Assembly: GCA_016219325.1 (NCBI GenBank)
Contig: JACRNH010000003.1
Location: forward strand, 45,123-109,122
Reading direction: 5' to 3'
Length of the DNA stretch: 64,000 nucleotides
From: Candidatus Collierbacteria bacterium
GTDB taxonomy: Bacteria > Patescibacteriota > Microgenomatia > UBA1400 > JACPES01
Made by a program: the position numbers and the translations under genes. The notes under the pieces were generated by a model, which saw nothing but the letters and a program-made list of their open reading frames with translations, was not told where the DNA came from and made no database searches. Below are positions 48,355 to 49,604 of this stretch, in pieces; position 1 is the stretch's first letter; every line of letters begins with the position of its first letter.

Positions 48355-48452
48355 AATTTAATTTAACTGTCTGCGCGTGAAGTTCCCGAAACTTAACAAC
48401 GCTAACAACGATAGAAGTTATTCCCTAGATTATTCATATTGGTTATAAAAGA

Positions 48453-48494
48453 TTTGTTAATACTTTGTTACGATCGTGAGGAAGTATTAACAAA
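48453..48494. promoter_or_regulatory. Operator-like inverted repeat TTTGTTAATACTT-N16-AAGTATTAACAAA
   Basis: Perfect 13-bp arms at 48453-48465 and 48482-48494. Confidence 0.5.
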
Positions 48495-48505
48495 TGGTTT
48501 GATTG

Positions 48506-48543
48506 TGTCAATACTCTATTACTGGAGTGCAAAAGTATTGACA
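48506..48543. promoter_or_regulatory. Second operator-like inverted repeat TGTCAATACT-N18-AGTATTGACA
   Basis: Perfect 10-bp arms. It shares the AATACT/AGTATT core with the first inverted repeat. Confidence 0.5.
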
Positions 48544-48621
48544 ATTTTATAGGTTTTTGTTTGGAATAAAGCAGAGTGCATATTTTTGCATACTCTTAAA
48601 CATTCAGATATCGAATATTTA

Positions 48622-49257
48622 TTATATTTTAAAGTTTTCAACTTGTTTAAAAATCCGTTCAACCCCAGAAGGAATAGCAAACATGGAATTCAATAAATCA
48701 TTTCCTTTAGTTACATCCAGGAGATCACTTACTAATCTTCCGGATTTTCTCTCAAGCTTCTTAAGAAAAAAATTCAAGCGTTCATTTCCTGCCTCTTTTA
48801 TTCTTTCATATCTTTCAATTGCTGCATTTCTATTTATCCTATTTTCTTCATATTCGGTTGAGACGGTTTTCCAAATTGCTGACACCAGGAATTTTTTGGA
48901 TTCTGAACAACTGGTAGACTCCGCAGAATCTCTTTCTTTACCTATAGCGTTGTCCCGAAAAACCAAATAGCTGTCCAATTGACTTTGAGTAAATCCCAGT
49001 TCGTTCATAACGCGGGATTTTTCTTTCTGAGATAAACCGCCATCTAATCTATTCCACGATGGGATATTCAGCACTTCAATTAAATAATCAAAACCATATC
49101 TTCCTAAACTCATATTTAACTCTTTAATTAAAATGGATTGACCGTTGGAATTGTATAAACCTATTCTTTTCGAGATATCACCAGAAAACCAGTCAGAAGC
49201 ATTAGCCTTTAATTTCTCTGTCAGATTTATTTCAATTGTTTGTTGTATTTCACTCAT
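48622..49257 (-). CDS. hypothetical protein (211 aa)
   Basis: Coding-like composition but no recognizable domain. It is co-directional and tightly packed with the two upstream minus-strand genes. Confidence 0.45.
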   Translation of the reverse strand: MSEIQQTIEINLTEKLKANASDWFSGDISKRIGLYNSNGQSILIKELNMSLGRYGFDYLIEVLNIPSWNRLDGGLSQKEKSRVMNELGFTQSQLDSYLVFRDNAIGKERDSAESTSCSESKKFLVSAIWKTVSTEYEENRINRNAAIERYERIKEAGNERLNFFLKKLERKSGRLVSDLLDVTKGNDLLNSMFAIPSGVERIFKQVENFKI

Positions 49258-49301
49258 AACTTTTTATTCAAGAATTTGTTTTCCGAGTATAAGGTAAAAA
49301 C

Positions 49302-49604
49302 TTACGAAACAGATATTAATTGTTGTTCGACTTTTTCAATTCTATCTTCCAAATTAGAAATATCAGCGTGAGACGGCGTCAGAATTTGTTCTTGACGAAT
49401 TGTTTCTAATTCTTTCATCATTTTATCCATAGACATGAAAAAATCATCTTTTCCCAGAAATTTCCGTTCCAATCTATCTATGGCCTCCAGGAATTCACCT
49501 TTTGTGATAAAAATACTGGTTAATCTATCTATAGTTTTCAGGAATTCATCTTTTGTTAGAAAATTTTTCTTTAGCTTGGAGATATCGCCGGAAGTCAATA
49601 GCAT
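49302..49604 (-). CDS. Tandem-repeat coiled-coil protein (three ~17-aa repeats TK(D/G)EFLxxIDRLxxxF)
   Basis: Repeats LTKDEFLKTIDRLTSIF / ITKGEFLEAIDRLERKF / LGKDDFFMSMDKMMKEL are encoded by a ~51-nt tandem DNA repeat. The C-terminus is a coiled coil. Confidence 0.5.
   Translation of the reverse strand: MLLTSGDISKLKKNFLTKDEFLKTIDRLTSIFITKGEFLEAIDRLERKFLGKDDFFMSMDKMMKELETIRQEQILTPSHADISNLEDRIEKVEQQLISVS

Follow-up and report, generated by a model that had tools for sequence, protein, structure and literature searches.

A strain-variable gap between rsmI and acs in a Candidatus Collierbacteria genome, with a resident small gene, an apparently displaced gene and a doublet of a dispersed palindrome

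What fills the low-GC gap between the convergent genes rsmI and acs in a Candidatus Collierbacteria genome, and what are the inverted repeats within it doing there? The window analyzed here is a 64,000-nt stretch of contig JACRNH010000003.1 from the metagenome-assembled genome (MAG) GCA_016219325.1, and the segment in question (48147-49612) extends 1,466 nt from the rsmI stop codon to the acs stop codon. On the minus strand, rsmI is followed by an 8-nt gap, a 100-aa open reading frame (ORF), a 44-nt gap, a 211-aa ORF (HZB78_01170 of the MAG, hereafter fam), a 267-nt AT-rich spacer and a 66-aa ORF. The 100-aa and 211-aa ORFs thus run in the same direction as rsmI; acs lies on the plus strand, ends at 48146 and is convergent with rsmI and all three ORFs. 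The original prediction, made from the sequence, regarded the 100-aa and 211-aa ORFs as an uncharacterized cassette accompanied by a cluster of operator-like inverted repeats. After comparing the locus with related and unrelated contigs (labeled L001-L128; protein hits are labeled P0002-P0007), we arrived at a different account, to which we give an even chance of being correct: the convergent rsmI/acs gap is a hot spot of gene gain and loss in Collierbacteria, the small ORF is its resident, fam is a displaced gene, and the inverted repeats are a doublet of a palindrome that is dispersed among unrelated loci.

The segment itself was as originally described: when checked in the sequence, both ORFs, the two strong inverted repeats (IR1 and IR2) and a weaker third repeat were all in place. 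The stretch is also odd within the window: its composition is foreign and its content differs between strains. The GC content is 29-36% across 48350-49650 compared with 42-50% in the flanks, and the GC content at third codon positions (GC3) of the genes in the segment is 0.27-0.31 compared with 0.44-0.45 in the flanks. An independent Logan assembly (L086) matched window positions 48147-48625 with 99.8% identity; therefore, the region is not an artefact of the MAG assembly. The upstream anchor of the gap is rsmI (49613-50329, ORF to 50419, minus strand), which encodes the 16S rRNA 2'-O-methyltransferase (Pfam TP_methylase, E 1.6e-17).

A search with RsmI returned 14 clusters with 79-100% identity, and contigs were read for three of them (L117-L119 and L120-L122 among these). 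In GCA_016183365.1 (L117; also L118 and L119), rsmI is followed by the convergent acs after 235 nt, and this gap holds only a small-ORF remnant on the opposite strand. In L121, L122 and L120, the gap is 290 nt long and is occupied by a single ORF of 82 aa. Between the window and these two types of relatives, Acs is 93-95% identical and RsmI is 82-86% identical, the latter being also the range against other Collierbacteria RsmI. As the same gap measures 1,466 nt in the window and 290 or 235 nt in the relatives, the window segment is a lineage-specific filling. A scan of genome contigs with RsmI was dominated by universal RsmI motifs and returned no Collierbacteria. For annotation, the locus is mostly an ordinary variable island.

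The gap seems to collect small coiled-coil genes in either orientation. Small ORFs on the opposite strand that start with MLTNDDLKNIEKV were seen at 6700-6934 of L117 and at 948-1103 of L087, and the DNA downstream of them is common to the two contigs. This type of ORF resembles the small coiled-coil protein linked to rsmI (LT(K/N)xD(F/L) type).

The 100-aa ORF (49302-49604, minus strand) has homologues after rsmI in L001 (53 aa), L087 (54 aa) and L121/L122/L120 (82 aa). It has an N-terminus, MLLTSxxISK, in common with the L001 and L087 proteins and a C-terminal motif, ELxTIRxE...EDR, in common with the L121 protein. Given these homologues in L121, L001 and L087, the small ORF is a normal resident of the post-rsmI spot. 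The three 17-aa repeats that had been reported in the 100-aa protein are real, though diverged. The units (LTKDEFLKTIDRLTSIF, ITKGEFLEAIDRLERKF and LGKDDFFMSMDKMMKEL; 51 nt each, 49407-49559, minus strand) occupy residues 16-32, 33-49 and 50-66. Units 1 and 2 are identical at 10/17 residues and 36/51 nt, units 1 and 3 at 5/17 residues and 29/51 nt, and units 2 and 3 at 3/17 residues and 27/51 nt. Tandem Repeats Finder called no 51-nt array, and the repeat search paired units 1 and 3 (70% over 40 nt). The small ORFs of L001 and L087 contain one 17-aa unit each. Judging from these sequence comparisons, we take the small coiled-coil ORF to be the usual resident after rsmI and the window allele to be a diverged form in which the 17-aa unit is triplicated.

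The next gene of the segment is fam (48622-49257, minus strand), which belongs to a rare protein family of CPR-like uncultured bacteria (CPR, candidate phyla radiation). Exhaustive phmmer searches against 1.8 billion cluster representatives, together with two word-indexed searches (5.8 billion clusters), found six true members of its family, and a metagenome scan with the fam alignment found nothing. A 2,622-aa match, P0006, was rejected as a repeat-driven false positive. The only close homologues are P0002 (L001) and P0003 (L087), which are 55-58% identical and lie in the order rsmI-small ORF-fam. At 261-904 of L087, the homologue is frameshifted into 84-aa and 109-aa pieces, representing either a pseudogene or an error of a low-coverage assembly. 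The distant homologues P0004, P0005 and P0007 (22-32% identical over the alignment) are found on four contigs (L082-L085), each with a tRNA-synt_1b gene, similar to tryptophanyl-tRNA synthetase (TrpRS), on one side and a tRNA_bind gene of 116-118 aa on the other. Beyond tRNA_bind comes ftsH in L083 and L085, and the gaps around fam are only 1-2 nt in L082, L083 and L084. In L085 (7189-7901), a PIN toxin and an 85-aa partner have been inserted on the opposite strand between trpS and the fam homologue, breaking the tight coupling. In L082 and L083, the GC3 of fam (0.24-0.25) equals that of its neighbours, whereas the window fam has a GC3 of 0.28 compared with 0.44-0.45 in its flanks.

The original statement that the 211-aa protein lacks a recognizable domain was upheld. 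Neither it nor the 100-aa protein matched anything in Pfam, NCBIfam, PADLOC, PDB sequences or fold libraries, and in PHROGs the sole profile match was that of the 100-aa ORF to phrog_12015 (function unknown, E 6.5e-4). An AlphaFold2 (AF2) model built from the six fam sequences is all-helical with a long central helix (pLDDT 72, pTM 0.64) and found no informative match in the fold libraries. Strictly, the original view that the two proteins have no clear housekeeping homologues stood. However, the setting of the distant fam homologues, an operon with trpS, tRNA_bind and ftsH, is a housekeeping one. A role of fam as an RsmI partner in ribosome biogenesis did not emerge: among the lineages seen, only those of the window, L001 and L087 have fam after rsmI, the gene was absent from the rsmI gaps examined in three relatives, and the distant fam genes sit with trpS.

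From its low GC3 relative to the flanks, the window fam looks like a displaced copy. In its native setting, fam would be an accessory or adaptor of a trpS/tRNA_bind unit (or a CsaA-FtsH unit), as its neighbourhood with a Trbp111/CsaA-type tRNA_bind gene suggests. One copy would have moved laterally into the rsmI-acs gap of a single Collierbacteria subclade, where it would now ride on the rsmI transcript. The window contains no remnant of trpS or tRNA_bind. Trbp111/CsaA-type tRNA_bind proteins and the accessory factors of aminoacyl-tRNA synthetases, such as Arc1p-type adaptors, offer a functional analogy only. What recalls such adaptors is that the distant fam genes are flanked, at gaps of 1-2 nt, by the genes for TrpRS and a free-standing tRNA_bind protein, which suggests a shared complex. 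Known adaptors, however, resemble fam neither in sequence nor in fold, and the window copy has lost the trpS neighbourhood.

Several points weigh against this account of fam. The rsmI-small ORF-fam synteny also exists in L001 and L087, with fam only 55-58% identical; therefore, the insert is not very recent. The low GC3 could stem from weak selection instead of transfer. Moreover, the function is deduced from gene neighbourhood in three contigs, and compact genomes of this kind have many translation-gene neighbours by chance. The 211-aa family, which is small and clean, offers a candidate for a lineage-specific protein that would partner TrpRS and a free tRNA-binding protein.

Beyond fam lie the inverted repeats. 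IR1 is TTTGTTAATACTT-N16-AAGTATTAACAAA at 48453-48494 and can be extended to 27-nt arms that are 81% complementary; IR2 is TGTCAATACT-N18-AGTATTGACA at 48506-48543 and is exact. Both have the geometry TGTYAATACT-N18-AGTATTRACA, which defines a 38-bp palindromic element: at 48455-48492 for IR1 (arms TGTTAATACTT / AAGTATTAACA, centre ACGATCGT; nhmmer E 9e-9) and at 48506-48543 for IR2 (degenerate CTCCAGTA-type centre; nhmmer E 2.4e-9). The pattern AATACT-N10-30-AGTATT occurs twice in the 64 kb compared with 0.07 expected occurrences, and the five exact copies of the 10-mer TGTYAATACT in the window all fall within 48455-49643. The two elements are 51 nt apart, with a 13-nt spacer, and T5-T6 tails are found on both outer sides of the doublet. 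The weak third repeat, AGAGTGCA/TGCATACTCT at 48573-48596, does not belong to the dispersed family described below; on the minus strand it forms a weak hairpin, AGAGTATGCA-loop-TGCACTCT, 26-49 nt past the fam stop codon.

The fifth 10-mer is a lone plus-strand half-site, TGTCAATACT at 49634-49643, in the last codons of rsmI (LVLTP). It is located at the drop in GC content, 30 nt upstream of the 100-aa ORF, and has no partner arm. The relatives L001 and L087 have GGTATTGACTC at the same rsmI codons, and 8/10 bases are set by coding; on these grounds the half-site is probably coincidental. If the palindromes were recombination sites, the half-site would be the far border of the insert. At 6933-6944 of L117, the acs stop region GAAGAGTATTAACA yields an exact AGTATTAACA half-site from coding sequence, which shows that a lone half-site at the end of a gene can be a product of chance.

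The 38-bp palindrome is found far beyond this locus. An exact scan with the TGTYAATACT-N18-AGTATTRACA pattern returned 28 metagenome stretches and one spurious viral match. By a rough estimate, ~10 of the 28 matches are expected by chance, and ~19 also share a conserved centre that was not selected for. Further imperfect copies were collected with an nhmmer profile of the 38-mers, which gave no match in 1.07 Mb of unrelated bacterial loci. The family consensus is TGTYAATACTT-N16-AAGTATTRACA, in which arms of 11 bp and an unpaired linker of 3 nt surround a core that varies and is often palindromic; for copies that carry the centre, the consensus reads TGTCAATACTT-nn-TTGCTATAGCAA-nn-AAGTATTGACA. 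Core variants include GCTGTCGC, GCTCCCGC and ACGATCGT. The ACGATCGT core with TGTTAATACTT arms, as in IR1, is the Collierbacteria type, which also occurs in L110 (two copies) and L114, and the centre of IR2 resembles that of the copy at 8346-8385 of L126. In the literature searched on the motif and on repetitive extragenic palindromic (REP)-like elements in CPR bacteria, nothing relevant was found, nor any description of this dispersed palindromic element.

The family occupies ~20 distinct loci, and every copy is intergenic. The flanking genes are unrelated and include OTC/carbamoyltransferase, fmt, phosphatase, lepA, murJ, ABC-2 permease, Lon-like ATPase, NUDIX and SNase/thermonuclease genes as well as small ORFs. 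As for the hosts, a gene in L097 is identical to KKT65489.1 from a Woesebacteria genome, and the nuclease (SNase) of L114 falls into a 90% cluster with a Collierbacteria protein. Doublets with copies 51-65 nt apart, as in the window, are present in L090/L123 (two), L093, L097/L108 and L126; the spacer measures 16 nt in the other doublets, and only the window has one of 13 nt. In L126, which comes from the sequencing run that also yielded the window's Logan contig, five copies within 2.4 kb (6789-9168) separate small ORFs and a PIN/antitoxin pair, and one of these copies comes directly after a canonical GGCCCGGCC+T7 terminator. L123 (14.5 kb; the same locus as L090, L124 and L125) has only four copies, in doublets at 8517-8608 and 9526-9617, which stand in the same order and bracket a single gene with PaaX_M/PaaX_C domains (8688-9518). 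This gene could be insulated, could encode an autoregulated binder or could form a cassette. Upstream of the thermonuclease gene, L127 and L128 contain large gene-free stretches at ~3100-10000 with two 23S_rRNA_IVP genes. These probably belong to an rRNA operon of a Collierbacteria-like genome that carries intervening sequences.

For the role of the element, our first choice is a bidirectional transcript-end hairpin, similar to REP elements and bacterial interspersed mosaic elements (BIMEs), ahead of a protein-binding site and, in third place, a recombination border. In the window, the acs transcript (plus strand) and the rsmI-small ORF-fam transcript (minus strand) run towards each other and end on either side of the doublet, which would form hairpins that would terminate or protect both transcripts. 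Judging from its position, termination or 3'-end protection is the likeliest function. Elsewhere in the family, many copies lie 2-60 nt past a stop codon, the second L123 doublet lies between convergent genes, and the L123 and L093 doublets have a T-run/A-run between their hairpins, like back-to-back terminators. Over 23 copies, 88% of the cells pair; the 11-bp outer stem hardly varies, the inner stem is short, and there is one compensatory switch at position 4 (C-G to U-A). The 3-nt linker is unpaired in 7-14/22 copies. This pattern fits both a hairpin and a symmetric protein site, and a test of G-U versus A-C mismatches indicated no consistent RNA strand.

In architecture, the element agrees with the REP/BIME elements of Enterobacteria and Pseudomonas: it is an imperfect palindrome of ~38 bp that is extragenic, dispersed among many unrelated sites, arranged in doublets, near gene ends and variable between strains. 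The likeness is architectural only: no RAYT-type (Y1) transposase was found, and no search aimed at one was made. The arms begin with TGTC/TGTT and lack a GTAG-type 5' tetranucleotide, they are AT-rich and end in TTGACA, and the copy number seems low (one doublet per 64 kb here, five copies per 2.4 kb elsewhere). Unlike typical REPs, the element is conserved across two deep lineages. As hairpin stems of conserved sequence located after genes, the copies also resemble the paired DNA-uptake sequences of Neisseria and sequence-conserved intrinsic terminators, and the T-run/A-run spacers of some doublets (L123 and L093) resemble bidirectional terminators. However, they are far too sparse for an uptake signal, their T-tracts follow no consistent pattern, and several of them are located between genes that start divergently.

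Some of these features weigh against a function in transcript termination. Rho-independent terminators combine a GC-rich stem with a U-tract; here, the stems are AT-rich, and a consensus terminator scan did not call the doublet. Despite the T5-T6 tails on both sides of the window doublet, the orientation of the T-run fits the incoming gene in only about half of the loci (~50:50), and three or more elements are flanked by divergent gene starts (L098, L113 and L126 at 9132). Additionally, it is the sequence of the arms and core that is conserved, not the pairing of the linker. This conservation holds in Woesebacteria and Collierbacteria alike and points to a protein that recognizes the element.

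A conserved protein of these lineages (a global regulator, a nucleoid protein or the PaaX-like protein whose gene the L123 doublets bracket) might accordingly bind DNA at the palindromes, and the window doublet would then regulate or insulate its neighbours. We consider this unlikely. It would account for the conserved arms and core around a linker that often does not pair, for the same arms in a Woesebacteria genome and in Collierbacteria-linked contigs, and for half-site changes that are symmetric (C-G to T-A in both arms). The arms end in outward-facing TTGACA and the elements lie 40-101 nt upstream of many gene starts; however, by reading of the flanks, no consistent -10 follows these hexamers. 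The only four copies of L123 bracket the PaaX_M/PaaX_C gene, but neither the 64-kb window nor the other loci yielded a PaaX-like gene. Moreover, the flanking genes have no common function, the half-site centres are 28 bp (2.7 helical turns) apart, which is awkward for a simple dimer, and the element is missing from the orthologous gap of close relatives.

A bolder variant, which we hold to be rather improbable, is that a dedicated protein shared by Woesebacteria and Collierbacteria (a recombinase, a termination/insulation factor or a PaaX-like protein) recognizes the palindrome and that the sites mark the borders of exchangeable gene units, namely the PaaX-like gene of L123, the toxin-antitoxin and small-ORF series of L126 and the fam insert. 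If true, CPR bacteria would have a system for organising cassettes of a kind that has not been described in them.

Direct recombination at the palindromes, as lox/attC-like sites or as ends recognised by a transposase that bound mobile cassettes and through which the insert arrived, is in our view improbable. As in attC and lox/FRT sites, conserved inverted ends enclose a variable middle with discrete core types (GCTATAGC, GCTGTCGC, ACGATCGT, CTCGAG and CTCCAGTA). The ends, however, do not match RYYYAAC/GTTRRRY of integron attC sites, since the arms read in the inverse order (GTTAATA...TATTAAC) with mismatches, and the 16 nt between the arms are too long for the 6-8-bp crossover region of a tyrosine recombinase. 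The L126 elements separate successive single-gene units, including small genes and PIN toxin-antitoxin modules, and the L123 gene is bracketed by doublets in the same order. Yet no target-site duplication is visible, and no integrase or transposase lies beside the window copy or most other copies. The window doublet does mark one edge of a strain-variable foreign block with a half-site at the other edge, but that half-site is explained by coding constraint, and the rsmI-small ORF-fam synteny in L001 and L087 comes with no evidence of the element.

The two genes might instead form a toxin-antitoxin or anti-phage pair, which we judge decidedly improbable. A small gene followed by a larger one with low GC3 in a variable gap would suit such a system, as would the apparent dispensability of fam, frameshifted in L087, and the weak PHROG match of the small ORF. 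However, there was no PADLOC match, and the distant fam homologues are translationally coupled within a trpS-tRNA_bind-ftsH operon. The genes also occur apart, the small ORF without fam in L121 and fam without the small ORF in L082-L085; the two ORFs are therefore not an obligate pair.

That IR1 and IR2 are dedicated operators of the cassette, as originally proposed, or of the downstream 66-aa ORF is very improbable and has been largely refuted by the dispersal of the element. In its favour are two palindromes of identical geometry 51 nt apart, promoter-like TTGACA-17-AATACT (minus strand) and TTAACA-17-AATACT (plus strand) arrangements, and the half-site upstream of the 100-aa ORF. However, the promoter geometry needs the 13-nt spacer that only the window has, the half-site is coding sequence largely fixed by the RsmI protein, and the 66-aa ORF is doubtful. 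Neither the 100-aa ORF nor fam shows a DNA-binding or regulator domain in profile searches. Above all, the same 38-bp palindrome lies at unrelated loci on ~20 other metagenome contigs and is missing from the rsmI-acs gap of the relatives L117 and L121 and downstream of the fam homologue in L087; therefore, IR1 and IR2 are not operators of the cassette.

Tandem interspaced guide RNA (TIGR)-Tas systems do occur in CPR bacteria, some with stem-loop arrays beside a helical coiled-coil Nop-domain protein, and their units carry two 8-12-nt spacers between box C/D motifs and are repeated 5-15 times (PMC12045711). We rejected as hardly credible that fam, all-helical with a long central helix and with stem-loops after its stop codon, is a Tas-like protein beside a guide-RNA array, because only two units are present, with variable parts of 2-4 nt and loops of 16-18 nt, the fam model has no Nop fold, other fam genes lack an array and the palindromes are dispersed far from any fam gene.

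To return to the dispersed palindrome, repeat families of CPR bacteria (Microgenomates) are little studied. This one, common to Woesebacteria and Collierbacteria and concentrated where strains differ, could serve as a mark of transcript ends or recombination borders or as a code for protein binding, in organisms without genetics. Neither the palindrome nor the fam finding changes a major question.

The remaining feature of the segment is the 66-aa ORF (48154-48354, minus strand), whose status is doubtful. Its motif GKDDIAAIRRAVD resembles the N-terminus of the Toprim domain of RNase M5 (phmmer against PDB, E 0.18); the likeness is limited to this 18-aa motif, in which Asp replaces the catalytic Glu, and the ORF ends ~14 residues later. 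The motif also matches two Bacillales loci (Paenibacillus, L073; Brevibacillus, L078), ~6 kb from rsmI, at which no gene was identified. The ORF is called only as 38 aa in L086 and is missing from the gaps of close relatives, and Pfam, NCBIfam, PHROGs and PADLOC gave nothing usable for it. Its GC content by codon position (0.54/0.46/0.27) shows a coding-like periodicity with low GC3. From its sequence, the ORF may be what is left of a gene that came in with the insert.

The tiny TTG-start ORFs noted earlier in the AT-rich spacer are mechanical ORF calls without support. Rfam at the gathering score found only five tRNAs in the whole window, and its matches in the locus (rli36 and SNORD20) were sub-threshold chance matches. 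Folded as a 271-nt minus-strand sequence, the spacer is more stable than 200/200 shuffled sequences (z = -4.9).

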